A DNA stretch of 64,000 nucleotides from Porphyridium purpureum (lineage: Eukaryota), in contig VRMN01000006.1 of assembly GCA_008690995.1 (NCBI GenBank), forward strand, positions 186,001 through 250,000, in the 5' to 3' direction. This document shows positions 1,337 through 37,389 of this stretch, piece by piece (the stretch's first letter is position 1; the number at the start of each line of letters is the position of its first letter). The notes under the pieces were generated by a model. That model worked only from the letters and a program-made list of their open reading frames with translations, was not told where the DNA came from and searched no databases. The position numbers were made by a program, and so were the translations under genes.

Positions 1337-3911
1337 CTACTCCGGCTCTTGTCCATTCGTCTCCGTTGCTTCGTTGGCCTCTATTTCTTCGCGCAACATC
1401 GCAGTCAGGATTTCATCCGCCAGCTCTACTATGGACATGTTTCTGGCGTTCGCTGCCATACGCATTCTTTGGATTGTGCGTACTTGAAGCGCAAGGCGAG
1501 GATCGGAGCCTGTGTCCGCATTCCCGTTTCCTTCACGAGGTGCGTTCTTTTCTTTCCTTGTCCGGAGACTATTGTTGGAGCGTGACCCACCGAAATCCAT
1601 TGTTGAACAGAAATCACCAAACGATAGGTCAGGCGAGGATGCGGTCGCGTGTAGCCAGTTCTTAAGAATTGGCTCCAGGCTCGCCAAAAGATCGTCTTCA
1701 GCCAAGGATTCATGCCAAAGTAACCCGGCTCGGTCGCCGGCGGAAGATCCACCCAAGTAGACATCGAACGTTGGCCCATTTTCGCTTGCGAGTTGTCGTT
1801 GCAATAAACCGATCTCCCCGAGCGCACACACCCCTCGCGCAGACCTTCTCAAGTCAGAATATTCGAGCTTGACCGTCACTGGCCGAAGCTGAATGGAAGG
1901 CGTCTGCCTCGCCTGGTCAGCCGCCCAAGCATTCAAGCGTTTCATCACCGAGTTCAGTGAGATATGCGCAGCCTGCACGGCCGCTGGAGCGGCCGCTTTC
2001 ATGCCGTTCAGTGTACAAACAAAGGGCATGGACTCCCGATCCTCTTCCATCGATGGCGCTGGCGTGAACGGAAATGTGCCGTGAAATTTGATGTTGTACT
2101 CACCGAGCAACGCATCAATGTTCCGCAGTTCTGCTTCCTTGAAATTCCGGAAAATGAAATCCAGCGAGCATTTGGACGGCAAAACCTGAATCTCAAGATC
2201 ATAGACGTCAAGAAGCCGGCGAATGGCGCTCAAAATGCGCTGCTCGCCTGCATCCGAAATACCATCAGAGCCATCGAGCATCATGCGAAAACAATGGACT
2301 TCACGACTATACGGGGTACCGGGGATCCAACCACACGTGAAGCTAGCAGAATCCGAAACCGCAGAAGGTTCCGCGATATGACCCGACTCGACAGCTCCGC
2401 GCCACGACTCCAATTTTACACCACGCGCTATCAGTACTCTCCGTAACTTCTCAGGGGTAAATTTTTCCACGATGGAGAGCAGATCACATTCGGGGGATAG
2501 ATCACCGAGGGCGGCAATGAGAGTCAATACATCCGACTCGGTCTCCACAAAGCCCAAATGAGCGACATTCAAGCGGCCATCATGGGGCTTCCAAGCTGGA
2601 TTTTCGGTCAGAAGAGCGGCACCAAGTACCACATTGTATCCAAGCAGAGAGCCCTGGGCAGCTGGATCTGCGTCGAGAAGCGCAAGAAGGCCTAGATCAC
2701 AGGCGTAAATGTCTACACTGGTATCCATGTCTGGTGCACCAAACCGCACCGTCAGTATGGCGTGAGTGCCTGCCGACCGCAGAACGGTCCGCCGCTCATC
2801 CGCGCTTGATTCTGATCGCATGAGCAACTCAGTCCCACGCCATACCTCAAGATGGACACCTGTTGGTTGAAGCCGATGAGATAAGGACTGAAATGAGTCA
2901 AGGCACGATGGAGGTGACGTACGCAGAGAATACCAGCTCAGACATTCAGGCACGTGGCTCACACTCCGATTCGCGTCCCCTCCCTGCTGCGACGTGGTCG
3001 CCTCGCACAGCATGTCTACGTCGTTATCGAGCAAGGCGTTCATCTCATCGCCCGTAAGCCCATTCAAGAGAAGGCTTCCGTCTGGTGAAGTGGACAGCGT
3101 GACTTTGTTTCCCAGGCTTTCCGAAAGCGAGCAAAGGCGCTTAAAGAGAGCCGCGGGATAGACACTATCTCGCGTGATCACGCGCAGAGCATAGCCTTCT
3201 TTAGAAGATGGTAGTCTCTTCCGAACGCTACCCTCTGAATCCAGCTCTGATGCTTGCACAGCCAGAAGGTTGCTTCTGCTCGTGTCGCTGTGACGTTTGG
3301 ATCGCCATTGAGACTGCAGCGCAAGTACAGTAGCATGAAGTAAAGGGGAGGAATAAGAATATCCGCAAAGACGCATGAGGTCAGTTACCGTACGACACAT
3401 CTACGTGTTACGTGCTCATCAAGGAAGAGCCCAACGATGAGAACTTGAGTCCTGTATGGTTTGCCTCGAACAATCATTGCCGGCAGGCTATGCCAAGATA
3501 TGGGATATACAGGTCGGCCAAGTAAAACCCCACAAGGGGTATGGCCGTTGCTCTAAGGCGTAAGAGTTGCGAACTATACACCACATGATACTGAAGCATA
3601 CATCGCATGCCAGCAGGTGCTTCGTCACTCAAGTGGGAGTAGCCCTTCCGTTCGACGGGAAAGGATTACCCCGCCTATACACGACCGTCAAGCTCGCGAT
3701 CAGTCTTGACTGCAGGTGTCCGCGTCCACCAACCCATCCCATCCACGATCGAACTCTAGCTTACCTGTGTGCCTCGCACTCGTGCACCGGGTGACGACGG
3801 CCGTGCCGTCGCGGCCCATATCGCGCGGCGCCGCAGCTGCGGCTCACGCACCGGCTTACCGCGCTGGATCTGGCGCTCCAGCACCACACTAGATGGTGCG
3901 ACAAACGCCAT
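1337..3911 (-). CDS. Degenerate ferredoxin-sulfite reductase (SiR)-like protein with C-terminal ribbon-helix-helix; putative exon 1 3765..3911, putative intron 3401..3764, main exon 1337..3400
   Basis: The 687-aa ORF is colinear with plant/cyanobacterial SiR: YALRVITRDSVYPAALFKRLCSLSESLG, SVDIYACDLG..GYNVVLG, FDVYLGGS..LEPILKNW..SFGDFC. The cofactor Cys motifs are absent. An upstream MAFVAPSS... exon ends in CAG|GTAAGC and joins in phase 0 to CGTAG|ATG at 3400. Confidence 0.75.
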
Positions 3912-5280
3912 ACCTAAACATACAGCGCCCACATCCACTCCTACATTCTCTTCACCACGCCCCCATCGCCACCGCCACTCTCACGTACGCGTCGTCCGCT
4001 CGCCGTCGCACCGGCCGCACGCGCGCGCGGAACAGGCCACAAGAGGTACAGCGACACTGTACTTCTGCGACTCGGTTCGCGCCGAATACAGGTTCGGCGC
4101 CGCGTGCCGCGGCTGCGCGACTGTGCAGCGGCGCGCCTGCTGCCTGATATCCGCGGGCGCGGACCATGGCGCCATGTGACTGTTGTGCCTCTGCCGCGAA
4201 ACGCCGCGAGTAGCAGCGGTCCGTCTGGAAAGAGAGCCGCTGCGCTCGAGTTCGGCGAATGAGGTGCTGAATACCTGCCGACAGCAACAGTGCCTGCGCG
4301 CTGGCTGCCATGTTGGCTGCACTGGACGCTGTGCTTTGGGCTGGGCACGACGAGAATTGGAGCTTGAGCTCGCGCTGAGCGATGTTGCGTCCAGAGACAG
4401 AAAAGGCACGACTGGTCTTTGGCAGGTGCAAGGAGGAAAAATGCCTCGGTTTCAGTCCTGCGGCTGTAGAAGTCTTTTTGGCACGTCCGAAACGCGCGGG
4501 CGCGCGGCATTTCACCCGGGGCCGCTTGCTGGGCGTCGAGCCGGCCTGGTCAGACCCAACCGCTCCGGCGCCAAGAGGACAAACAGCGGAATCACGGCAA
4601 AGTCCTCACGGCGTAATGTCGCGACTGGGCACCGCGCTGGACTGCGACCGCACCCGCAAAACGCCCGGGAACGGTCCAAGCGGACCACGCACGACGCATG
4701 CCATCCGACCGTCAGTAGCACGCATGCGTCTCGGGCGCCTTGCACACGCTAAAGTATATCGTCTGTCAAGTCGAAGACAAAGCGGCGTATCCGTGTCTGC
4801 TGATGAAGCTGGCTCTTGCTTGGATCGGTCCGGGAATCAGGTACAAGAGTAAGGTGGCGATTTTCGACATCGGGAGACAGCGAGTTCCGGCGGGAAGGAG
4901 AACGACAAGGGGTTTGACACGTGAGGGACAAGGCGTGATTTCTGGACAGTGATTGTTATGCCGAAGCGTCGAGGTAAAGATTGATTTCCGTGAGACGTGT
5001 GGACGCGCAAAGTGTTGGGTCAAAATCACCAGCGCCCGCGAGGGGGTCGATACGCTGGAGGTTTTGATTTGGGACGGTGAATTGGATGGAGTACGATGGC
5101 GACAAAGGTCCTTGGAGCAAGGCGGCATGGAGAGAGTTTGGCGATGAGAGCAGCAGTGGGCAGCTGATCGGAATGCTAAACTCTTGCCCGGGGGAATATG
5201 ATGCGGAGAGGGGCAACAATGTCGATGCGGAAAAAAGGCAAAGTCGCGACCTAACGTCGCGTCCACGAGGCGGCCTTAGA

Positions 5281-6864
5281 ATGAGACTGTTTGCGAGTCT
5301 CTTGTTTGTTTTTCTTCTTTCAATTGCATCAGGAACTACTTTGATGTGGATTCAGCAAAGTGCTAGTCTCGTTGTGAGTGTTCACGCTGTGCATGAACAG
5401 ACTATGGCAGGTATGTTAGAGAACACCGTGGCGCAAGGTGATGAACATCTGTCCGCGACAACACATTTGCTAGTTATCAAGAAACCAGGGGACACGGCCA
5501 GCAGCCGTCTACAACGGACATTGCGGAGTGACCGCGAGTCACCGCGCAATAACTCCGTACCTGGTGCACAAGAAGGTATGAGCGGTGCAGATGCGACGCG
5601 CCGCCAAGCAAAGGAAGACGTTCGGCAGGGGCAAGAAGACCCGGAATCGCAGCACCTCGTGACTGTGAAGGTCATAGCAGGTCCGGATAGTGTGAATTTG
5701 GACAAACTTGAGGAAAGCAAGATAGCGGCAAGCCCACGCTACGTGACTGCCGATCTCAATGAACTCCATGCTGTGCGAGCTGCTCTGAGCGAAGGGAGCG
5801 TGGTAAATAATGAGCCTGATGGCGTCGGGGAAAAGTCCAGCAGCGTGACAGGGGCTTCACTTGAGACCCGGGTCCGCCATGTGTTGAATGAGGTTCGGGA
5901 ACCTCCAAGCAAATCAGTCTTGCTTCGCCCTCAACCCACGGCAGGCATTGGAGTCGGCCTGGCAAAATCGTTTAGACGTAGTCTTGGGTCTGAGAATGTA
6001 GTGGCAGATCCTGTGAAGGCAGAGACACGCGCCGCGAAAAGTCAGGGCTTTGCGGGATTGTCCAGTCCCACTGGAGCAATGCGCAAACGAGCAGCGTGTG
6101 CGCACAGGGCCTTGAAATTTACGAAAAGGTCGTGTGGGTACAAGTCCGGACTGCGGATGTTGGGCGACAAGGTGTATGGTGGGTGGAAAATGTGTGTGGA
6201 GGGTATTCACGAAATGGCGAAAGAGCAGCGCGAAGCGCTCGTTGTCTACGGTTTCGGGGTTGGCTTTGACACGTCGTGGGACGAAGCGCTCATGTCCCAG
6301 TACGGCTTGAACGTCCATGCGTTTGATCCCACGCCGAGGTCGCTCGAGTATGTTCGTGGGCGGAAAGAACTTCAGACGCCGTTGTTTCATCACAGCGCCG
6401 TGGGTTTGGGCACGACGAACCGAAATGAAACGTGGTATGAGCCGCGGAAGGGACGGTGGGAGGCGTCCAACAGCAAATACAACCACCTGAAGGACGGCAT
6501 TGCGCACGAAGTGGAAGTCAAGACGCTGAAGACACTGATGCAGGAGCGCGGTCACACGCACATTGACGTGCTGAAAATTGACATTGAGGGAGCGGAGTAC
6601 GAGGTGCTGGTTGACCTTCTGAAGGATGGCGGATGCCTGCCGACGAACCAGCTTCTGATGGAGACGCACTCGTACCAAATGAAGCAGCTGTGGAAAGCTC
6701 ACGGAGAAACCGTGGCGCTCCTTGAGCAGGCTGGGTTCAGGCTTGTGTTCGCAGGCCCAGGCAATCACGAGCACACGTGGATTCGTTTTCTTGACAGATC
6801 GAGGATGAGGGATCATCCAGGAAAAAGTCATGGGGACATGAATCAAAGCAAGGTGATATCGTGA
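5281..6864 (+). CDS. FkbM/Methyltransf_22-like SAM-dependent methyltransferase, type II membrane protein (copy 1)
   Basis: N-terminal TM (LFASLLFVFLLSIA), long stem, then YGGWKMC, VYGFGVGFDTSWD, VHAFDP and HIDVLKIDIEGAEY motifs. Start placed at MRLF; the ORF is open from 5077. Confidence 0.85.
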   Translation: MRLFASLLFVFLLSIASGTTLMWIQQSASLVVSVHAVHEQTMAGMLENTVAQGDEHLSATTHLLVIKKPGDTASSRLQRTLRSDRESPRNNSVPGAQEGMSGADATRRQAKEDVRQGQEDPESQHLVTVKVIAGPDSVNLDKLEESKIAASPRYVTADLNELHAVRAALSEGSVVNNEPDGVGEKSSSVTGASLETRVRHVLNEVREPPSKSVLLRPQPTAGIGVGLAKSFRRSLGSENVVADPVKAETRAAKSQGFAGLSSPTGAMRKRAACAHRALKFTKRSCGYKSGLRMLGDKVYGGWKMCVEGIHEMAKEQREALVVYGFGVGFDTSWDEALMSQYGLNVHAFDPTPRSLEYVRGRKELQTPLFHHSAVGLGTTNRNETWYEPRKGRWEASNSKYNHLKDGIAHEVEVKTLKTLMQERGHTHIDVLKIDIEGAEYEVLVDLLKDGGCLPTNQLLMETHSYQMKQLWKAHGETVALLEQAGFRLVFAGPGNHEHTWIRFLDRSRMRDHPGKSHGDMNQSKVIS

Positions 6865-9422
6865 GTCAAAAATCAAACTACAAGCACACAAATGAAGAGA
6901 CCGATACGGCCCTTCCTTACTTTGGCAAAAGGGCTAAACACGCGCAATAATTTGCTCGGTGATGTCGTTTTGCAGAAATGGTCGTGTTGACGTACAACGT
7001 GAAGAGAGCTTTCGGCAAGCCATACATTCTATCGCGCCGCTTCGTTGAGCCTGTTAATGACGCCATGGGGAGTCCTACTTCAATTTGCAAATGGATTGTA
7101 GTTTTGCAGTCGTGGAATCTGCCGGCAATTGAGAGAGAGATCGCGAGCACGTTTCCAGAATGCTTCCTGGGCCCCTGCAAGGCGAGCGCGAGTGATCGAG
7201 AGTGCTTACCCCCACGTGTAAGCTGCAGTGCAAGTACGCCATTACTCTGATTCCCTGGTTGAATGCTTCGCTGCACTCACTCACGGTACTTCAATGCCAC
7301 ACTGTTGTACGGAGAGACGTGCTGGGTTCCTATCGACGCACGTATTCAAGTTTTCCATGAACCCCAAAACATTAACTCAAGTTCCAAGTCATGAGCGAAC
7401 TGGTGGTAAACCGGCAAGCGGACGCACGAGAAGCAGCGGGACTCCAAGCTCGTTGAGGTGCTACGAAGCACAGCCCGTCCTTATCTGTGTGCGCGCCACC
7501 GCCGCGTCTCGCGTTGTGCCTGGCTTCACGAGCACGTGCGGTCGACTGCGGCTCTCCGTTGCGACGCCTTCTCACACAGTCGTCCAAAGCCAGCGCGCTC
7601 ATTACCTACTCGCGTGAATAACTTTTCTGTCATGCCACATGAGCTCACAAGCAAGTGCGCCGCAAGGCGCCAAGCCGTTCAAGGCCCCAAGCGGAATCAC
7701 TACTGAATTGAACGGCGCTTCACAGACGGTTTAACGGCGCGCCGCATAAATTTAGACGGAGTGTACAGTGCTGAACCTCGAGTTTAAATTCAGAATCGCG
7801 GTGTGTGTTTGTGTGGCTTACAGCGCGTGTGGTCACGCGGCTATTTGTTTATCAGTAAAGCGACGCGGTTTGATATGCGATGTTTGAACTGTACCTGCTT
7901 CGAGCTCGCTCATCGTTGAAGGTTGGCGTGCATGCTTCGACGACGTGAGACAAGAGTTTGGACTGCGTTGCGTTTCGCCCTTGGCGTGCGGCTCCTCGCA
8001 CTGTCGACTCAAATGGTCGGCACGCCCAAGCGCGCGCATGGGAGAAATAAAGAGCTTTCTTCCGGCCGCCGGCGGCTGGAGCCGGCTGGCGTCCGGCTGG
8101 GCGCACCCAGCTGCGGAGTCAACCGACCCGCCCGCCCGCGTGCGGAGGTTTGCGTCCGCGAGGCCGGTCAAGATTGCCACGGCAATGTTGCTTGTCGTGG
8201 CCCTGGGTGCGCTTGTGTTCAAGCTGCACAGCATATCTTTGTCGCATGACGCCTTTCTCGCGACGTTCGGGAATCATCATCGGTTTCTCGCGGACATCGG
8301 AGCCGTGGCGGCTGTGGGCGGCGAGGGGCTGAGCTCCGACGGCGCGCCCCAGGATAATGAAGCCCCGGACAAAAAGCACGTGGAAGTGGATAAAGCACAG
8401 ACGGTGAAAAACACAGAACCCCTCGGAATAGACAGCAGTCGCACGTCTGGAGGGTTGATCCATGTCTCATCGAAACGCGCTGATATTCAAAGCAATCGGG
8501 GAGCTGTAGAACATACTCAGGCGCAGAAAGACGGAGCACTTGATCAGCCTGCAGTTCCAAGCAACATCTCATCCGTCAAGACTAACAGAGACCATATTGA
8601 CGATATAGAAGTGCGACAAGGCGAAAGCAGAGTCGCGGCTCCAGTTTTGAACGAGTCAAAGTTGTCACGCGCAGATTCGCCGAGCGAGTTGGCCGGATCC
8701 GATGCAAGCAGAATGCAACCTTTGCGCCAAACATGCGCCGAGGAAGCATTGTCCTTCAGAAAGTGGCCGTGTGAGCAAAAGGGAGGACTGCGGATGTTGG
8801 GCGACAAGGTGTATGGTGGGTGGAAAATGTGTGTGGAGGGTATTCACGAAATGGCGAAAGAGCAGCGCGAAGCGCTCGTTGTCTACGGTTTTGGGATTGG
8901 CTTTGACACGTCGTGGGACGAAGCGCTCATGTCCCAGTACGGCTTGAACGTCCATGCGTTTGATCCCACGCCGAGGTCGCTCGAGTATGTTCGTGGGCGG
9001 AAAGAACTTCAGACGCCGTTGTTTCATCACAGCGCCGTGGGTTTGGGCACGACGAACCGAAATGAAACGTGGTATGAGCCGCGGAAGGGACGGTGGGAGG
9101 CGTCCAACAGCAAATACAACCACCTGAAGGACGGTATTGCGCACGAAGTGGAAGTCAAGACGCTGAAGACACTGATGCAGGAGCGAGGTCACACGCACAT
9201 TGACGTGCTGAAAATTGACATTGAGGGAGCGGAGTACGAGGTGCTGGTTGACCTTCTGAAGGATGGCGGATGCCTGCCGACGAACCAGCTTCTGATGGAG
9301 ACGCACTCGTACCAAATGAAGCAGCTGTGGAAAGCTCACGGAGAAACCGTGGCGCTCCTTGAGCAGGCTGGGTTCAGGCTTGTGTTCGCAGGCCCGGGAG
9401 ATCATGAGCACACGTGGATTCG
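6148..9422 (+). repeat. Direct repeat of about 640 bp (6148..6785 and 8785..9422) covering the methyltransferase catalytic domain
   Basis: Copies align at an offset of 2637 with roughly 8 mismatches counted by eye. Confidence 0.95.
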
Positions 9423-9471
9423 CTTCGAAGAGGAGAAAGGAGAAAAGACGAATCAGAAGGATTCTGTTTGA
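8038..9471 (+). CDS. FkbM/Methyltransf_22-like methyltransferase, type II membrane protein (copy 2)
   Basis: TM IATAMLLVVALGALVF. The catalytic domain is almost identical to copy 1, but the stem differs. Confidence 0.85.
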   Translation: MGEIKSFLPAAGGWSRLASGWAHPAAESTDPPARVRRFASARPVKIATAMLLVVALGALVFKLHSISLSHDAFLATFGNHHRFLADIGAVAAVGGEGLSSDGAPQDNEAPDKKHVEVDKAQTVKNTEPLGIDSSRTSGGLIHVSSKRADIQSNRGAVEHTQAQKDGALDQPAVPSNISSVKTNRDHIDDIEVRQGESRVAAPVLNESKLSRADSPSELAGSDASRMQPLRQTCAEEALSFRKWPCEQKGGLRMLGDKVYGGWKMCVEGIHEMAKEQREALVVYGFGIGFDTSWDEALMSQYGLNVHAFDPTPRSLEYVRGRKELQTPLFHHSAVGLGTTNRNETWYEPRKGRWEASNSKYNHLKDGIAHEVEVKTLKTLMQERGHTHIDVLKIDIEGAEYEVLVDLLKDGGCLPTNQLLMETHSYQMKQLWKAHGETVALLEQAGFRLVFAGPGDHEHTWIRFEEEKGEKTNQKDSV

Positions 9472-9826
9472 CCAGAGCGCTCCTGTTGCCGCCAAGTCTT
9501 TTATCCCACACTTGCACCCGTGTACATGCCTTACGTGGCGACGTGTATCGGTCCACTTTCCGTCCTTTAGCGGAACCCGCTTAAATCATCAAGGATAGAC
9601 GCATATCTCGACCAATGAACATTATGGTGTAGGACGTTTTTGCTTCTTCCGGTGCGATCGATGCCGCTAGCTTGAGGTCCGTCTGCGAGCGCCTCTCCCA
9701 TCTTTGCAAGACAGACACACACGCGGACACGCCTTTACCACTCATTCGTGATGACGTTCCCAAAAATTAGAGGTTGGACGTGAGGAGAAGGCATCATTGG
9801 CGTGAGGGGCGCGTACCACCGAGCGA

Positions 9827-10921
9827 ATGGCGCCCGCGCTGCAGCCTTCAAGGCTTTTGGCAGGTGTGTGCGTGTTCCTGTTCGGTTTGGCTCTGGGTAG
9901 CGTTCTATCATCTGCTCTGCGCGCTCATGAGGTGAGGCATGCGATCGAGATCAGGACTGGCCCCGGACTGGCTCACGGCTTTGCGCCCGCGCCAGACAAC
10001 GTCAAGCTCATGCGCCCGGCTGACATGATAACATTCAAGTCCTCGGAAACACATCCACGGCAAAGCCAATCGTCAAGACAAGATGGTCGAGTGGACGTCA
10101 AGGAATTGGTTAAACGTGGCGCAGTCAAAGTGTCAAGTATGAACGCATCAAGTGCGTCACGCGCCTCGGGCGCGACGAGCCGTAGTGACGGCGCTTCACA
10201 AGCGAGTAAAGATTCTCCCAAGTGCGCGCAAGGTGCGTTGCAGTTTAGCAAGCGAGACTGCTCGGATGAGAAGAATCTCGTCTGGGTCGGGAATCCTACA
10301 TATGGCGGTTGGAAAGTGTGCATGACGAGCATTCGAAACATGCCGCGAAAAAAGCGTAAAGGGCTTGTCGTGTACGGATTTGGTGTCGGAACAAACACGT
10401 CTTGGGATGAAGCATTAATTAATGACTATGGTGTTCCCGTGCACGCCTTTGACCCGACACCGAAATCAATCGCGTACGTGCAGAATCGCGAGGAGCTTCA
10501 GACACCCATGTTCAAGTTTAGCGCTGTAGGCATCGGTGACGCAGACCGTGAGGAGACTTGGAATATTCCGCGAAGAAGTGTGTCGCAGAGTAAGTACAAC
10601 CACCAGGATAGCGGCATGAGCACGGAGGTTGAAGTGAGAAGTCTGACATCGATCATGAAGGAACGAGGCCACACATACCTCGATATCTGTAAGATTGACG
10701 TGGAAGGGGCAGAATACGAGGTGCTAATCAGCCTGCTGGAGGACGGCGGGTGTCTACCGACCAACCAGCTGCTCATGGAAACACACTCCTACCAGGTCGC
10801 CGGACTGCAGAGCGCTCACGTCAAGACAAAGGCTCTTTTGGGGAAGGCGGGTTTCAAGCTTGTCAGCGCTGGCATTGGAGGCCACGAGCACACATGGATC
10901 CGCTTTCAATCGCGGCCTTGA
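9827..10921 (+). CDS. FkbM/Methyltransf_22-like methyltransferase, type II membrane protein (copy 3, older paralog)
   Basis: TM LLAGVCVFLFGLALGSVL, plus YGGWKVC, VYGFGVG, VHAFDPTP, KIDVEGAEY and GGCLPTNQLLMETHSYQ shared with copies 1 and 2. Confidence 0.88.
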   Translation: MAPALQPSRLLAGVCVFLFGLALGSVLSSALRAHEVRHAIEIRTGPGLAHGFAPAPDNVKLMRPADMITFKSSETHPRQSQSSRQDGRVDVKELVKRGAVKVSSMNASSASRASGATSRSDGASQASKDSPKCAQGALQFSKRDCSDEKNLVWVGNPTYGGWKVCMTSIRNMPRKKRKGLVVYGFGVGTNTSWDEALINDYGVPVHAFDPTPKSIAYVQNREELQTPMFKFSAVGIGDADREETWNIPRRSVSQSKYNHQDSGMSTEVEVRSLTSIMKERGHTYLDICKIDVEGAEYEVLISLLEDGGCLPTNQLLMETHSYQVAGLQSAHVKTKALLGKAGFKLVSAGIGGHEHTWIRFQSRP

Positions 10922-28290: not shown

Positions 28291-29406
28291 TCATTCTCTG
28301 GAATCTGAGGCTCTCCCTGGCGACGGCGCCATTCCGCTTTGCTGTGCTAGCATGCTCATCTGCTGCAAAAACATGCTGAAGTGCAGCGGCGTCAGCCCCT
28401 CGAACACCGGCTGCGACGGCTGGCTGCCGGGCCCCATCGCAGCCAGCGCGGACATCAGCGCCGCGGGGTCCATCATGCTCGGCAGCACCGCCGCGTTTGC
28501 GGGTCTCGTCGTGGTTGCACCGCCGGCAGCCGCGTTCACGCCAGCGACCGCTGCGCTGCCACCACCCGCGCCGCCTTTCTTCCCCTTGCACCCATGCGCC
28601 CGCGACGGACGGGTGCGCTGCGTGTTCTTCTTGTACACGTTGCACTGCGCACGCGTCGGGCAAATGCGCATGCAGTGGCAGCAGTACCACTCGTTGTCCG
28701 GCGCGGTCGCCAGCTCAAAGTCCCACCCGTTCTCCGCAAAGCACTTTTCGCAAATCACCTTGCGGCACGAGCCCGTCTGCACATTGTAGCACACCGCCTG
28801 CCGCACCACCTTGGCGCTCTTGGTGCAGATGTGGCAGAAGCGCGACGGCTCCACCGCCACGTCGTCCGTGGTGTCTACGGCCCCCGGCAGGTCGCCCGTC
28901 CCGTAGATCTGCGACATCAGCGGGCTCATGAACCGCGACGAGCCGCCCGGTGACGCCTTGTTGCCCGTCTTCACATGCTTACGCGCTGAGATCTCTGGGT
29001 AGAACAGGCCCAGCTCCGAGTCCACCGTGTTGCACACGGAGTCACTCGCTTCGCCGACGGCCTTCATTGCCTCCAGCGACCGCTTGCTCGAGCACGGTGT
29101 CAGCATCTCGGGCGTGACCGCCTCCAGTGCAAACGCCTCGTGCATGGGCATGGTCATGGCCTTGCACGGGTGTGGCGTCACTTGCTCGATGCTCGGCGGT
29201 AAGCTGGACAGCGAGCTGATCATCGCATCATCGACGTCGAAATCAGCCAGGAACGAGAACTCGTCGTCCGCGGCGTCGAAGCCACGCGCTTGAAGGCTGC
29301 TGAGCGCGTGCTTGCACGCCTCACCTTGAGTGTCAGGGTCTGTCCACGTGCTGCCAGAGTCGGCAAACACGTCCTCGAGCTCTGCCGTGATATCCACGGT
29401 CTCCAT
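28291..29406 (-). CDS. Cys-rich zinc-finger protein (PHD / zf-4CXXC_R1-like), copy A
   Basis: SRFCHIC..VC..CRKVICEKC..WYCCHC..CP..AQC domain, acidic N-terminus and Ala/Met/Gln-rich C-terminus; probable transcription regulator. Confidence 0.8.
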   Translation of the reverse strand: METVDITAELEDVFADSGSTWTDPDTQGEACKHALSSLQARGFDAADDEFSFLADFDVDDAMISSLSSLPPSIEQVTPHPCKAMTMPMHEAFALEAVTPEMLTPCSSKRSLEAMKAVGEASDSVCNTVDSELGLFYPEISARKHVKTGNKASPGGSSRFMSPLMSQIYGTGDLPGAVDTTDDVAVEPSRFCHICTKSAKVVRQAVCYNVQTGSCRKVICEKCFAENGWDFELATAPDNEWYCCHCMRICPTRAQCNVYKKNTQRTRPSRAHGCKGKKGGAGGGSAAVAGVNAAAGGATTTRPANAAVLPSMMDPAALMSALAAMGPGSQPSQPVFEGLTPLHFSMFLQQMSMLAQQSGMAPSPGRASDSRE

Positions 29407-32400
29407 GGTCTCTTAACCCAACGTTTCCTCCGTGCGGCAAAAGCTACAGAGAAGGAACGCAGCTCTGTTCCCTGCTCGTCAGCAACAGTCATGCCAGCCT
29501 CTTACTCTCCGCGACCAAGCGCGCACAGGCGTCCGACAGGCCCGCTTTATATACGCGGCACATGCATGGCTCCGCCAGCCACCGCGCGAGTCAAGATCGA
29601 CCGGTTCAAGGGGCCATTTGCGCGATTCCGGTGCAATCTCCGCATGGCTGTGTCGGCGCCATTTCTGCGCGGAGAATGTGATGTGAGTGAAGGTGGGCCC
29701 CGAAGCAGTCGGCTTCCCATGTGACGTCGTCATTACACATCCTCCGTTGGCGCCAGCGCCCGGAACTACTCAAGATCACGTCAGATGGATCGGAGGACAG
29801 ACTCTGCGCTCTCTTGCGGAGCTTAACAAATTTACGTCGAAAGTGAAGGGGGGAATGGACATCTTTAAATTAGCGCGGCTGTGGCTGACGAGGATGGCGA
29901 GCGTCCGGAAGCCATGTAACACCTGCCAGAGTGACAGGCCGTTGAAGCACAGTGCCGAGATGACACGCAAGGAAGCCTCCCGTCGGCACATGGCAGGTGA
30001 TGGTTCGTTTCCCGCAGGAGCATGTGGCCTGACTCAAGCCAGATACGTGAGGATGTGACGCGCTGGTCTGGCATTCCGGGTCACAAGAGGAACACTGGCA
30101 GCTGTAATCCCGCTGGAACGACAAGGTCCTCAGCGTCACCGCCGCAGCAGCAGTCGCACCTGGCGCCGAGAAACGGAAGGATCTGTATCCAGCCTTTCCG
30201 GAGCCCGTCTTTTTACGTGCATGGCCTGTGAATACGAAAACCGGTCCCAAGACTTTATCCGCAAAGAATGATTATAGTGTGGCGAGACAGAGCGGATTGG
30301 TGTTTCTTCATGGCATCGAGGGCATACCCAGATGTACGAAATGGTGTCGGTGCAGGCGTGAAGGGTCAAAATTCAGCGTTTGTCGCATTCGGATGAAATG
30401 GAAACGCATGCCTGCACTTGCCAGTACACACATGACAGCACGAGGCTTGAGTCTTCGGATTTTCGCGATTCGCTCATATCCGGCATGCTAGATAGTACCA
30501 TATCCTTCACCTGGGCCTCTCGCGCGCATCCACGGACAAACGCCGCGTGCGCGCCACGCGACAATGTCCAAGACCATAAAGGCCAGGCCACGGATTCTGC
30601 TCACATGAATACGTACAGTGTCCTGCTTTGATTCCTGAATGATGAAGATTTGCCCCACATTCTCGGCTACCTGCTCACACCCACCGCAAGACGCTTACTG
30701 CGATTCCCGCGGCAATATGCGAGGCCCCGCTTTCTGGCTGATCCCCATGGTGATGAGCTGCTATTCCTTCTCCACGGCCAAAGACGCTTGTCCACTGACC
30801 CAAGCCGAGAGTGCCGCACTCGCGCCTCAACAGACGCGCAGCCGCAACAGGGCGGACCCGCCTCGAGTCGCGCTCGCCCTCGTCGCTTACAAAACGGGTG
30901 AGCGCGACTGCCGCCCATGCGGTGCTGCGGGGACCGTTGGAACGCCCTGTCGCACGCACGCCACGAACCCAACTCACGGCACCGCTCCACTGTCAACCTC
31001 GATACTTGTCTATTTCGGCAAGAGCTGCTGCTGATTGGGACCTTGGCGAATCACAAAATGCCATCAATTTACTAGTTTGCATGGGAGCGCCTTTTATCTG
31101 AATCTGTCGAGCGCGAGCTGGTGCTGGGCGCGCGGTTGGCGCGTGTAACCGGTGTGACGATGTGGGTGATGCGGTGCGCGTGTGCTGCGACGCATGCAGG
31201 TGCAGGACATCCACGCGAATGCGCCATTGACAGAGCTGATGGCTACCAGTCGGCAGTGCGCGAGCGCGGGCTGCTCTTGTATTTAGGCACTGCGGAACGC
31301 TCGCAGAGCAGAGCATGTGATGCGGCCCGTTGTATGTGAGTAGGAATCGGGTCTGGGGCTTTGGAGCGAATACAAGCTGACGCTGAAACCTTTGCCGCAC
31401 GTAGGAAACGTTGGGTTAGGAGACCATGGAGACCGTGGACATCATGGCAGAGCTCGGGGACGTGTTTGCCGACTCTGGCAGCACGTGGACAGACCCTGAC
31501 ACTCAAGGTGAGGCGTGCAAGCACGCGCTCAGCAGCCTTCAAGCGCGTGGCTTCGACGCCGCGGACGACGAGTTCTCGTTCCTGGCTGATTTCGACGTCG
31601 ATGATGCGATGATCAGCTCGCTGTCCAGCTTACCGCCGAGCATCGAGCAAGTGACGCCACACCCGTGCAAGGCCATGACCATGCCCATGCACGAGGCGTT
31701 CGCACTGGAGGCGGTCACGCCCGAGATGCTGACACCGTGCTCGAGCAAGCGGTCGCTGGAGGCAATGAAGGCCGTCGGCGAAGCGAGTGACTCCGTGTGC
31801 AACACGGTGGACTCGGAGCTGGGCCTGTTCTACCCAGAGATCTCAGCGCGTAAGCATGTGAAGACGGGCAACAAGGCGTCACCGGGCGGCTCGTCGCGGT
31901 TCATGAGCCCGCTGATGTCGCAGATCTACGGGACGGGCGACCTGCCGGGGGCCGTAGACACCACGGACGACGTGGCGGTGGAGCCGTCGCGCTTCTGCCA
32001 CATCTGCACCAAGAGCGCCAAGGTGGTGCGGCAGGCGGTGTGCTACAATGTGCAGACGGGCTCGTGCCGCAAGGTGATTTGCGAAAAGTGCTTTGCGGAG
32101 AACGGGTGGGACTTTGAGCTGGCGACCGCGCCGGACAACGAGTGGTACTGCTGCCACTGCATGCGCATTTGCCCGACGCGTGCGCAGTGCAACGTGTACA
32201 AGAAGAACACGCAGCGCACCCGTCCGTCGCGGGCGCATGGGTGCAAGGGGAAGAAAGGCGGCGCGGGTGGTGGCAGCGCAGCGGTCGCTGGCGTGAACGC
32301 GGCTGCCGGCGGTGCAACCACGACGAGACCCGCAAACGCGGCGGTGCTGCCGAGCATGATGGACCCCGCGGCGCTGATGTCCGCGCTGGCTGCGATGGGG

Positions 32401-32519
32401 CCCGGCAGCCAGCCGTCGCAGCCGGTGTTCGAGGGGCTGACGCCGCTGCACTTCAGCATGTTTTTGCAGCAGATGAGCATGCTAGCACAGCAAAGCGGAA
32501 TGGCGCCGTCGCCAGGGAG
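28313..32519. repeat. Large inverted repeat: arms 28313..29441 and 31391..32519 (about 1.13 kb), spacer about 1.95 kb
   Basis: The arms are reverse complements with only a few substitutions, mostly near the ATG. Confidence 0.97.
29546..29553 (-). promoter_or_regulatory. Putative TATA box (TATATAAA) for zinc-finger copy A
   Basis: AT-rich TATATAAA on the minus strand about 140 bp upstream of the ATG, in a GC-rich context. Confidence 0.45.
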
Positions 32520-33552: not shown

Positions 33553-34644
33553 TTACAATGCAATTTGATCCTTTCTCGGCGTTACACGCATCAGAACCGC
33601 CTTGGCTGTCACAGGCTGAGTATCTTCATTGACAAGCCCGACCATTTCAAGCTCGTCTGCGCAGACAACCGTTTGGTGCCGCAATGCCCAGCCGGGCGAC
33701 AGTGCAACGACATCACCGACAAGAATCAAGGTCGGACTCTCCAGTGCAGCGCGCTGGATGCGCTGCTCCAGCTCGTGAATGGTACAAAACACCACGCGTT
33801 GTTCTGGTGTCGTACCGCGCTCCACCGCGGCCACGGGAGTCTCTGGACTCAAGCCGTGCTCCACGAGCAGGTGCGACAGTTCTGCGGATGCACCTAGCCC
33901 CATGTAGATAACCAACGTTTCAGATGCATTCACGCTACCGCCGCGTAATCCCGCCAGTGCCTCTTCGAGCCCTTCCTTCAAGTGCCCGGTAACAAATCGG
34001 CATCCCTGCGCAATCCCGCGGTGTGTCAGTGGGATTCCCAGGTGCGCACCAATGCCCGCCGCACTGGTGATTCCCGGCACGGCTTGCACGCGAATACCGA
34101 GCGCCCTCAAGAACTCGGCCTCCTCCCCGCCGCGCCCAAATACGTACGGGTCGCCACCCTTCAGACGCACTATCACCTTGTGCTCTGGGTCGGACGCATA
34201 CATGCGGAGCAGATCGTGAATTTCCTCCTGCGTGCGTGTGTGCATACCCTTCTGCTTACCCACATACACCATGCGTGCATTTGGGTTCACAAACTCAAGA
34301 ATCTCCCTGGACACGAGCCGGTCGTACAATATCACATCTGCGTGCTGCATCAGCCGCACTGCTTTCAGCGTCAGCAACTCTGGGTCGCCCGGTCCCGTGC
34401 CCACAAGGTACACCGTTGCGCCTTGCGCAATGTCCGTTCGCTGCAGACGAGCGCGCAAACGTTCTCCCACCGAAGCGTCGTCGCTGGCACTTTTCTCACT
34501 GCCGCTGCCACGGCATACCATTCGCGCGCGGCCCGCAGCCTTGGCCGAGCGGCAAGGCCATCTCTGCTGTCTGGCGTACTGGCCCGTCGCAGGCTCACTG
34601 TGCTGCGTTGCCCTCGCAGCTACATTCACACTGGGAACAAACAT
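33553..34644 (-). CDS. UPM1: Uroporphyrinogen-III C-methyltransferase (siroheme synthesis), plastid-targeted
   Basis: VYLVGTGPGDPELLTLKA, YDRLVS, VRLKGGDPYVFGRGGEE, VPGIT, IPLTHRG and VERGTTPEQR; transit peptide MFVPS... Confidence 0.96.
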   Translation of the reverse strand: MFVPSVNVAARATQHSEPATGQYARQQRWPCRSAKAAGRARMVCRGSGSEKSASDDASVGERLRARLQRTDIAQGATVYLVGTGPGDPELLTLKAVRLMQHADVILYDRLVSREILEFVNPNARMVYVGKQKGMHTRTQEEIHDLLRMYASDPEHKVIVRLKGGDPYVFGRGGEEAEFLRALGIRVQAVPGITSAAGIGAHLGIPLTHRGIAQGCRFVTGHLKEGLEEALAGLRGGSVNASETLVIYMGLGASAELSHLLVEHGLSPETPVAAVERGTTPEQRVVFCTIHELEQRIQRAALESPTLILVGDVVALSPGWALRHQTVVCADELEMVGLVNEDTQPVTAKAVLMRVTPRKDQIAL

Positions 34645-35649
34645 GACTCTTTCGCTCCTTCCCGATACTCAACAAACCACCAAATGTCTGTCACGTCTAG
34701 CCAGCGTCCACCGGTAAAGCTGTCCCGCCCTTGTCTCCTAGAACACGTACAACCTTGTCACCGCAGCGAGCGACCCCGACAGCTTTATACCCGTATGTCG
34801 GAGTGCGACAGCACACCGCCAAGTCGCCCGGCCTCCTGCTAACGTTACTCAGGTGGGCGAACGTCTACCTCGCGCGAAGGAGGTGGCGCACGGATGAGAG
34901 CGAAAGCCCGCGCCGTCGTGCCTTGCCAGCCGTTGTCGAAATTCTCCTGCGCCGCGTCAGAAAGCCGTGTGGGGCCGCCGCACCTCTCGCGCGTACGTGT
35001 CGCGGTGTGGCGGTGTCGCGGTGTCGCGAGTTTCTTCACGGCTGCGGCGCGCGCGCAACACCACCACCGCGCGATGGCGGGTGTACAGTGCCGAACGCTG
35101 CGCCTATCAAAACGCGCTGTTTTACTAGGACGTCGCCATCGCGCGAAGTGTACTTCCACGTGTGGCGCGGTTGACCGGCTCATCGGTTCGAGCTCAACCG
35201 TTTTCTGTGTTCCATGTAAAACGTCCCGGTTTTGATAGAAAAACGCGCCACATCCCGAGATGTTCGGCCAAGTCGCGCGCTATTTCCGGTAGGAGCGGCA
35301 ACACATGGAGCGTGAAAGCGCTGCTCGTGCGGAGGTCCGTGGAGAATGGCGTCATTGTCGGTCGCGTTGCATTTGCCTCGAGGTCTGCGTCCTGGTTGCC
35401 GCGCGGGTCTCTGTGGTTCACGCAGCCTGCTGCGTCTGTGCGACACGCAGGTATAAAAGTACCCCCGCGTGGCAGCCGGAACGTAGCGAAGATTGGGAGG
35501 GACGCAAGACGTGACAGAGTGAACGGGTAGAGAGGACAGCAAAGGAACATCACGGCCGGCACGTCTAGGGTTGCGCTGTGACGTTGTTGGGGTAGCACAA
35601 GGGCGTGTGGGTTGGGCAGCACGGCAGGCGTGGACAGGTAAGGAGAAAA
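34645..35649. promoter_or_regulatory. Putative bidirectional promoter shared by UPM1 and nitrite reductase
   Basis: Divergent genes; TATAAA on the minus strand at 34784..34789 and TATAAAA on the plus strand at 35452..35458; 4x8-bp GTGT(C/G)GCG repeat at 34997..35028; central inverted repeat at 35168..35200. Confidence 0.55.
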
Positions 35650-37389
35650 ATGGCCGCATTTGTGAGTTCGGTGACGTCGTGGACCGGCGCGACGCACAGG
35701 CGGGCAGCTCGGGGCACGTGCGGGCAGCTGCGCATGACGCTGGCCGAGCCAGAGGTGGAAGTTAGCGCAGGCTCTGGCCTGGCGTACTTGTCGCCCGCTG
35801 CTAGAGAGCGCGCAACGGCCAAGAACGCCAACCCGGTTGAGAAGCTTAAGAACGCCAAGTGCGGGTCAAACATATGGACGGAAGTGTTTGAAATGTCGCG
35901 ACTGATTCGTGAGGGCAAGACGTCATGGGAGGATCTCAATCTGGATGACCGGGAGAAGCGCCTGAAGTGGGTCGGCCTCTTCCATCGCGAAAAGGCGACG
36001 CCGGGCAGATTCATGATGCGCCTGCGCGTGCCCAATGGTGAATTGACGGCGGAGCAGCTCGACTTCTTTGCCGACGTTGTCGAGAAGTACGGTGAGATCG
36101 GTGTCATTGACATCACCACCCGCCAGAACATTCAGTTGCGCGGCATCGACATGGGCGACGTGGAAGACATCTTGAACGGTCTGAAGAAGCTGGGATTGAC
36201 CAGCGTGCAGTCCGGTATGGACAACCTCCGAAACATGGTCGGGAACCCGCTGGCCGGAATCGATCCTCTCGAGCTGGTCGACACACGCCCATACATGCGC
36301 GACATCCAGGACATGGTCACGAGAGACGGCCTTGGAAATCCCGAGCTGTGCAACCTGCCGCGCAAGTTTAACATTTCGATGAACTCGACCGGCGATAACT
36401 TTGCGCACACACACATCAATGATCTGGGTCTGGACGCCATTGTGCACCCCGAGCTGGGCCTGGGTTTTAATGTGATTGTGGGCGGCATGTTCTCCGGTCA
36501 GCGCGTGGCAATGAGCGTTCCGATGGACACTTTCGTCCCAGCAGACAAGGTCGTGGCGCTGTGCAAGGCCGTGCTGGAAGTGTTCCGTGATTTTGGACCG
36601 CGCGCCACGCGCACCAAGTGCCGATTCATGTACCTGGTTGACGAATTGGGCGTCGAGAAAATCCGCGAGCTGGTCGCCCAATATATGGACTACGACGGCG
36701 AGCTACCGCGCGCAGTGCCCAAGACCGAGTCGGGCCAGCACCGCCACATCCTCGGCGTCCACCCGCAAAAACAGGAGGGTTTGAGCTGGGTTGGGATTTC
36801 TGTGCCGGTGGGCCGCATGCTGCCGGCAGACAGCCGTGCACTAGCTGACGTTGCGCGCAAGTACGGCGACGGCACGATCCGCATCACCGTAGACCAAAAC
36901 GTGATCATTCCAAACGTGCCCACCGACAAGGTCTCCGAGATGATCGCCGAGCCGATTTTCTCCTCCTTCAAAGTGACACCGGGCAAGCTGATGGGCAGTT
37001 TAGTAAGCTGCACAGGCGCCCAATTCTGTCCGTTTGGTCTTGTTGAAACTAAGAACCGCGCAAAGCATGTCGCCGAAATTCTCGAGTCGCGCTTGGATAT
37101 GCCCAAGAGTGTACGCATCCACTGGACCGGCTGCCCGAACAGCTGCGGGCAGGCACAGGTCGGCGATATTGGATTGATGGGCAGCCCAGCGCGCCTGGAT
37201 GGCAAGGCCGTGGAAGGCGTGCGGATTCTGCTCGGTGGCGAAATTGGCAGCGCGCCCGAACTTGCGACGGACTTTGAGAAGTCTGTTCCGGCCGCGGACG
37301 AGCACTTGATTCCTAAGCTGGAGGCAATTCTCATCGAAAAATTCGGCGCGTCGCTGCTGCCTGGCGTGGGTTCCTTTGTGGCTGCGTAG
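35650..37389 (+). CDS. nirA: Ferredoxin-nitrite reductase, plastid-targeted
   Basis: RLKWVGLFHR, FMMRLRVPNG, DITTRQN, SGMDNLRN, NLPRKFN, and cofactor motifs SCTGAQFC and WTGCPNSCGQ; transit peptide MAAFVSS. Confidence 0.97.
   Translation: MAAFVSSVTSWTGATHRRAARGTCGQLRMTLAEPEVEVSAGSGLAYLSPAARERATAKNANPVEKLKNAKCGSNIWTEVFEMSRLIREGKTSWEDLNLDDREKRLKWVGLFHREKATPGRFMMRLRVPNGELTAEQLDFFADVVEKYGEIGVIDITTRQNIQLRGIDMGDVEDILNGLKKLGLTSVQSGMDNLRNMVGNPLAGIDPLELVDTRPYMRDIQDMVTRDGLGNPELCNLPRKFNISMNSTGDNFAHTHINDLGLDAIVHPELGLGFNVIVGGMFSGQRVAMSVPMDTFVPADKVVALCKAVLEVFRDFGPRATRTKCRFMYLVDELGVEKIRELVAQYMDYDGELPRAVPKTESGQHRHILGVHPQKQEGLSWVGISVPVGRMLPADSRALADVARKYGDGTIRITVDQNVIIPNVPTDKVSEMIAEPIFSSFKVTPGKLMGSLVSCTGAQFCPFGLVETKNRAKHVAEILESRLDMPKSVRIHWTGCPNSCGQAQVGDIGLMGSPARLDGKAVEGVRILLGGEIGSAPELATDFEKSVPAADEHLIPKLEAILIEKFGASLLPGVGSFVAA

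Follow-up and report, generated by a model that had tools for sequence, protein, structure and literature searches.

Does the minus-strand gene at 1337..3911 of a 64,000-nucleotide (nt) stretch from Porphyridium purpureum (GCA_008690995.1, contig VRMN01000006.1, positions 186,001 to 250,000; this whole stretch is called the window below) encode a sulfite reductase (SiR) that has given up catalysis, and, if so, what has been kept and for what role? In an earlier note made from the letters alone, an intact frame of 687 codons was read as following the layout of ferredoxin SiR end to end, with three of the four cysteine ligands of the cofactor lost, the substrate-binding motifs replaced and a ribbon-helix-helix (RHH) retained, and a dedicated plastid nucleoid protein was proposed. 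The analysis described here indicates a SiR pseudoenzyme with a conserved RHH tail, real and apparently undescribed. As its function we infer, with a probability of roughly 40%, that of a dedicated plastid nucleoid or DNA-binding RHH protein; this is the leading hypothesis.

The protein considered is the spliced product of two exons (49 + 658 codons from the ATG at 3911; 707 amino acids), and its descent from SiR is beyond chance by profile and sequence comparison. It was matched by NF010029 (E 5e-16, 58.1 bits, cut-off 457), TIGR02042 (E 3e-9, 35.4 bits) and TIGR02041 (E 1e-8, far under its cut-off), and it fell below the curated family cut-off for ferredoxin sulfite reductase (TIGR02042, 731.5 bits); a SiR domain was not found by the Pfam scan, and a PDB search returned the E. 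coli SiR hemoprotein (E 3e-4). On a profile of 18 cyanobacterial SiRs, drawn from 18 of the 20 genomes searched, it scored 48.8 bits in colinear blocks running from the first ferredoxin-like domain through the tail, and the top scorers among the 188 proteins compared were red-algal SiRs. An AlphaFold model built on a 125-row alignment (pLDDT 70.9; an earlier model from 16 rows was poor, pLDDT 49) matched maize SiR in Foldseek (E 7e-18, TM 0.52-0.58) and SiRHP at a Z of about 20 (rmsd 4.2 over 412 residues), a fold that is not independent of the homology because the 125 rows were a SiR alignment. An atlas search, taken as a source of leads only, gave NIR_SIR clusters at 0.79 and an RHH_1 cluster (23% of members) at 0.83, rank 14. 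The end-to-end layout is thus borne out by colinear profile blocks including the tail and by a whole-body fold match in the alignment-guided model, which was the comparison with SiR structures that had been proposed. Origin from bacterial CysI was considered and rejected, since red-algal SiRs score highest and the tail is of the red-algal type; nine diagnostic columns were split.

On this SiR scaffold the catalytic residues have been replaced. Both decayed cofactor motifs lie where the earlier note had put them, TSPD and HAILTVRF stand in place of TTR and LPRKFK as it had read (Table 1), and the GRTH motif is likewise replaced. Of the 179 positions at which 12 canonical SiRs do not vary, 54 were kept, and in the counted alignment none of the five invariant Cys and only 6/33 invariant Lys or Arg residues remained. 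At most one Cys fell on a ligand position in each of three alignments. The residue in question, Cys482, was aligned to ligand 2 by hmmalign and A3 (two of the three multiple alignments), was paired with the non-ligand first Cys of a CC in a relative from P. aerugineum (P0002) in the pairwise alignment, and in the model sits in the middle of the strand that precedes the ligand loop. The loss of three ligands claimed before therefore stands as a minimum; judged from alignments and model, all four are probably lost. A siroheme-[4Fe-4S] site needs its ligands, so with at least three gone it cannot form, and, with the basic substrate and siroheme residues missing as well, the sequence speaks for loss of catalysis. 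The gene was also said to be a duplicate, and a separate normal SiR (P0099) is indeed annotated in P. purpureum, outside the window.

Searching 1.84 billion representatives gave 16 proteins with E<=0.001, the best non-self match being P0002 (E 4e-11, 29% identity), and P. aerugineum too has a normal SiR (P0083). P0002 keeps four of the five invariant Cys, all four ligands among them, and 5/33 invariant Lys or Arg residues. Novel residues, defined as absent from 12 canonical SiRs, were common to both diverged copies in 32/182 cases (permutation mean 12, maximum 25), a sharing that co-alignment may inflate. A tree (36 rows, quick search) groups the two paralogs on saturated branches and therefore cannot establish orthology or date the duplication, and the diagnostic-column counts were uninformative (7-30 columns, mostly third states). 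P0002 is likely orthologous to the P. purpureum copy. Its retention of ligand Cys together with the loss of basic residues suggests stepwise loss; if the two are orthologous, the order suggested is loss of substrate and siroheme binding, followed by that of the cluster ligands. Further diverged copies were not found in searches of limited sensitivity: the 1.84 billion representatives yielded none beyond P0002, two word-index searches (7994 and 1904 candidates) returned the query protein only, and when metagenomes were scanned with the paralog alignment, none of the 113 pattern matches proved to be a relative.

The C-terminal tail was treated separately. Its RHH (CEP) scored 27.6 bits on a 44-row red-algal profile, from which Porphyridium-group rows were excluded and which consists mostly of one closely related group (best of 500 shuffles, 4.8), and 24.9 bits when all 59 rows made up the profile (500 shuffles, at most 4.7). 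On the same red profile P0002 reached 47.9 bits and the catalytic Porphyridium copies 7.6 and 6.8; a 15-row cyanobacterial profile gave 6.4 for the P. purpureum diverged copy (best shuffle 6.4), 17.6 for P0002, and 1.3 (P. purpureum) and 15.8 (P. aerugineum) for the catalytic tails. Identity of the paralogs to Compsopogon and Chondrus was 21-24% in the core and 38-46% in the RHH, against 61-68% and 19-25%, respectively, for the catalytic copies. In the paralog core about 10 ancestral residues were lost per one lost by the catalytic copy, and in the tails the losses were similar or fewer; core and RHH differed significantly in 10/10 comparisons, which are not independent (Fisher p 4e-10 to 7e-3), and the paralog tail was nearer to the outgroup than the catalytic tail in nine of ten. 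From these alignments it is firm that the tail was spared from core decay in both species, and the same numbers are suggestive of decay in the tail of the catalytic copy. The stronger proposition that the catalytic copy has lost its RHH was rejected, tails being present on the catalytic Porphyridium SiRs.

RHH domains are obligate dimers, and the polar or basic residues that point outward from the ribbon read DNA, as in CopG and Arc. The tail of the model resembles Arc, NikR, MatP, CdbA, TacA2 and ORF56 (Z 4.7-5.9), a likeness that is weak alone and agrees with the profile, and retention of the RHH as claimed earlier is supported by both. No strand was formed at the ribbon in the monomer model, as expected of a monomer, and the alternating hydrophobic positions are kept. 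A complex prediction with two tails, made without the alignment, scored 0.02 (mark 0.32) and is evidence neither way. The ribbon Arg found in 58/59 canonical tails is retained in the diverged copy, and P0002 retains all three outward ribbon residues. In other red algae, the RHH tail of canonical SiRs (P0033-P0072) is near-invariant despite widely varying linker length, which suggests a strong function in some of them; the Pyropia/Porphyra and diatom SiRs that were viewed lack the tail, and in the Rhodella SiR (P0080) it appears, by eye, as two tandem RHH-like repeats.

The gene structure was read from contigs of public runs. The minus-strand open reading frame of 687 codons (1337..3400) is present as noted before, but its start falls within the intron, and the spliced protein is the one of 707 residues. 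Eight public runs were used, of which X13 is on record as RNA, seven are guessed to be RNA or of unrecorded kind, and none is on record as DNA. The joint 3765/3313 was present in 2/4 runs of one set and 4/4 of another (6/8 in total), in pieces whose short side has just 20-27 letters, under the bridging rule of the contig mapping, and it was not seen in X13; contigs retaining the intron occurred in all eight runs. Near-zero cover on either side of the gene in four runs fits transcripts, and contig 5′ ends lay between 3909 and 3963 in five runs. The only database protein matching the frame is FVE85_4668 of P. purpureum. The public 758-residue model (P0001) was rejected because it begins at the intronic ATG, without a transit peptide, and because a joint supporting its extra 71 C-terminal residues was found in 0/8 runs. 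Residues 1-45 of the spliced protein, by composition only, start with MAFV and hold nine Arg or Lys and two Asp or Glu, resembling the starts of the nitrite reductase (NiR), ChlD and tetrapyrrole methyltransferase of the window, unlike four non-plastid control genes with 6-18 acidic residues in the start; import into the plastid may be supposed from this composition alone. Thirteen coding variants were counted over the eight runs (7 synonymous, 6 not), with a ratio of non-synonymous to synonymous polymorphism (pN/pS) of 0.28-0.34 (p 0.02-0.05, without a control gene) and no stops or indels seen. This ratio, taken with a reading frame that stays open in two species whose proteins are 20-29% identical, indicates some constraint on the protein.

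According to the leading hypothesis, a SiR duplicate would have lost its cofactor and substrate residues and kept the RHH, its N-terminus would direct import into the plastid, and its tail would pair as an RHH dimer and bind plastid DNA without an enzymatic role. The two jobs of an ancestral protein would thereby have been divided, one copy serving as the enzyme and the other binding DNA, and the P. aerugineum copy would be an intermediate, perhaps with an iron-sulfur (Fe-S) cluster still in place; the transcript would likely also yield an intronic U17-type small nucleolar RNA (snoRNA). DNA binding by the RHH dimer is the best single guess because the tail is selectively conserved in a dead enzyme. 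In the literature, addition of the CEP is reported to relocate Arabidopsis SiR to nucleoids (PMC4898807).

A number of points weigh against this hypothesis. Cyanobacterial and red-algal SiRs bear the CEP, and the SiRs of C. merolae and cyanobacteria were reported off nucleoids (PMC4898807); since the CEP is found on such SiRs, and since the catalytic Porphyridium SiRs bear the RHH tail as well, the tail is not proof of nucleoid binding. Chlamydomonas SiR was placed near the pyrenoid, and the main nucleoid protein of C. merolae is the HU-like HLP (PMC4758235); for hupA, the accessible part of PMC5534331 names just C. merolae and G. sulphuraria and is silent on Porphyridium. In the P. purpureum copy two of the three outward ribbon residues differ: the Thr or Ser two positions after the kept Arg (44/44 red-algal tails) is changed to Ala and the Arg or Lys two positions upstream of it (42/44) to Asp; a helix-B Ser (41/44) is changed to Val. 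The cyanobacterial-profile scores (15.8 and 17.6 in P. aerugineum; 6.4, equal to the best shuffle) give weak support for decay of the catalytic tail. The mature diverged copy has an isoelectric point (pI) of 5.16 and a net charge of -22, against 8.95 and +11 for P0099 and a pI of 9.1 for the DNA-compacting plant SiR (PMC4154389). Much of the low pI comes from loss of the basic pocket, and 6/13 canonical SiRs computed also lie below 6.5; with so acidic a body, an accessory or site-directed role is more likely than bulk compaction of the kind that pea SiR performs. About 600 retained residues of the SiR body are unexplained by DNA binding, the diverged copy is known from two species only, and the three upstream ATGs in the leader and the frequent intron retention cast some doubt on production of the protein.

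The strongest of the alternatives, and still an unlikely one, is a partner role. Here the pseudoenzyme would use its RHH, or else retained surfaces of its SiR body, to pair with the active SiR or some other plastid protein and would tune or scaffold sulfite reduction, DNA binding being incidental. It agrees with the whole SiR fold of the alignment-guided model, with the dimerising nature of the RHH and the presence of a tail on the catalytic copy too, and with hydrophobic RHH positions that are kept where outward ribbon residues are changed. Within a species, however, the tails of the diverged and catalytic copies share only 25% identity in P. purpureum and 14% in P. aerugineum, below the identity of each paralog tail to those of distant red algae, and P0002 retains the outward ribbon residues.

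The intron raises another alternative. A U17/snR30 (SNORA73)-like H/ACA snoRNA was found in it by RF00045 with 42.5 bits (E 6e-8), below the gathering value of 74, as the only Rfam match at E<=0.01 in the window. Its 3′ hairpin has a 7-bp basal stem, and forcing m1 and m2 open costs 0.3 kcal/mol; the fold z was -2.4 for the whole RNA and -0.25 for the 3′ hairpin alone. In U17/snR30 the ACA box stands seven nt past m2, and an m1 variant with compensation is known from T. brucei (PMC2664660). The defining ACA box reads UCA here, and the RNA was therefore filed as U17-like; judged from its sequence it is probably functional. Contigs end near its 5′ end, at 3663 (X13) and 3670 (X12), which is a weak hint. 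The species table of a U17/snR30 review, in the portion available, covers 14 species with no red algae and no plants (PMC7601244); a plant U17 is unnamed in the available text of two Arabidopsis snoRNA papers, and that of PMC12095548 added nothing on the range of U17. A metagenome scan with a U17 pattern gave eight loci, of which 1/8 matched SNORA73 and 0/8 lay near a SiR gene. One of its contigs (L105), with canonical m1, m2 and ACA, reached just 56.3 bits against the gathering value of 74. On that contig (L105:59..1931), a canonical-looking U17 is accompanied by two C/D snoRNA-like matches, all under the Rfam cut-offs.

It is conceivable, if improbable, that the gene is a snoRNA host in slow decay, kept mainly for an essential intronic U17/snR30, with a protein that is left over under weak constraint. 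The RNA lies in the only intron of the gene, contigs from all eight runs retain that intron and upstream ATGs precede the frame, branch lengths are saturated, the P. purpureum copy is more decayed than P0002, and a vertebrate U17 host gene is seemingly non-coding (PMC7601244). Such a left-over would hardly be expected to keep an open frame of more than 650 codons in two species at just 20-29% identity, a pN/pS of about 0.3 and a selectively spared RHH, and, with UCA at the ACA position, the RNA itself may be a variant or a relic. A redox or metal sensor, in which an Fe-S-bearing RHH regulator family would include a P. purpureum member that uses Cys 482, 545 or has kept the output domain only, is more doubtful again. 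P0002 keeps four ligand Cys yet has lost 28/33 invariant Lys or Arg, which suggests that Cys were held after catalysis was lost, and Cys lie near both motifs in the P. purpureum copy; in that copy, however, the four-Cys arrangement is absent from alignments and model, and the Cys of P0002 could be slow-decaying remnants. An enzyme of altered specificity, comparable to the nitrite-preferring SiR variant reported for C. merolae, would fit the retained fold of the model and is very improbable given that ligand Cys and basic siroheme and substrate residues are gone and that SiR and NiR are each present in a normal form. The dedicated DNA-binding protein thus remains our preferred reading; its fullest version, in which SiR was split by way of an Fe-S-only intermediate represented by P. 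aerugineum, and in which the U17/snR30 of the same gene is a working RNA, its box non-standard and its m1 compensated, is rather unlikely as a whole.

The coordinates of the features are collected in Table 1. Elsewhere in the window, the ferredoxin-NiR said to be intact was found at 35650..37389 on the plus strand, above its cut-off (635.7 bits, cut-off 594). A tetrapyrrole (uroporphyrinogen-III-type) methyltransferase gene on the minus strand stands head to head with it (33553..37389 for both, about 1 kb between), and the two neighbours are likely a pair of siroheme supply and siroheme enzyme. Three tandem FkbM-type methyltransferase genes lie at 5086..10921 (+), the first two with nearly identical catalytic halves and different N-terminal parts, and 28313..29449 and 31383..32519 form a 1,137-nt inverted duplication (99% complementary) that holds two near-identical Cys-rich zinc-finger-like genes.

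Table 1. Positions in the window of the features of the SiR-like gene and its intronic RNA
Feature	Position	Strand	Basis or remark
Upstream ATGs (3946, 3934, 3921)	3921..3946	-	Very short frames in 5′ leader; read from sequence
Exon 1	3765..3911	-	49 codons from ATG 3911; transit-peptide-like start
Intron	3314..3764	-	451 nt, GT-AG; spliced and retained contigs
U17/snR30 (SNORA73)-like H/ACA snoRNA	3443..3677	-	Rfam RF00045, whole model, inside intron
H box	3554..3549	-	After 5′ domain
m1 variant AUAUCCCA	3508..3501	-	Departs from published motif
m2, exact	3462..3456	-	3′ side of 3′ hairpin pocket
ACA position, reads UCA	3448..3446	-	None of the 8 runs lists a variant
Exon 2	1337..3313	-	658 codons and stop; SiR-like body, tail
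TSPD replacing substrate-binding TTR motif	3080..3091	-	Alignments
HAILTVRF replacing LPRKFK	2741..2764	-	Alignments
Decayed first cofactor motif FVCTLNGMK (ligands 1, 2)	1997..2023	-	Alignments, model
Decayed second cofactor motif LEYSDLRRSARG (ligands 3, 4)	1832..1867	-	Likely Ser at both
C-terminal RHH (CEP), residues 653-691	1388..1504	-	Profile match; model helices pLDDT about 91-96

No description of a dead SiR paralog or of a red-algal U17 was found among the papers listed by the literature searches, which took in few subscription papers. Why plant-type SiR bears an RHH where it is reported off nucleoids is left unresolved in the available text of PMC4898807. Having lost catalysis and conserved its tail, the natural copy uncouples the two functions and allows the role of the tail to be tested without disturbing sulfur assimilation, and the two Porphyridium species would represent two stages of pseudoenzyme formation. 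If the U17-like RNA is functional, an essential snoRNA of ribosome assembly extends to a lineage missing from the published species table, as far as that table was available. The m1 variant would then yield a prediction on the 18S ribosomal RNA of the organism that can be checked, and a working U17 with a non-standard box, if true, would make red algae and plants places to look for this essential RNA.

Both parts of the locus can be set beside known systems. The intronic RNA is like U17/snR30 in its H box, its 3′ hairpin with basal stem, its exact m2 and, as in vertebrates, its intronic site, and differs from it in the m1 variant, the UCA, the sub-cut-off score and a host that is the paralog of a plastid protein. 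The canonical SiRs of red algae (P0099, P0083, Compsopogon, Chondrus) are the closest-scoring relatives of the diverged copy and share its tail type, whereas its core is only 22-24% identical to theirs and lacks the catalytic motifs; its tail is nearer to the red-algal consensus than is the tail of P0099. In Arc, NikR, MatP and CdbA the helix-helix geometry is alike (rmsd 2-4.6 Å over 41-60 residues), but in the diverged copy the RHH is fused to a dead enzyme body, its ribbon residues are partly changed and its Z is middling. The plant SiR that bears the CEP, the nucleoid DCP68 of pea and soybean, agrees with the diverged copy in domain order, fold and RHH tail and, judged by composition, in a plastid-type N-terminus (PMC4898807, PMC4154389); the plant protein is active, basic (pI 9.1) and holds two jobs, whereas the P. 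purpureum copy has probably lost all cofactor ligands, is acidic and stands beside an active SiR.

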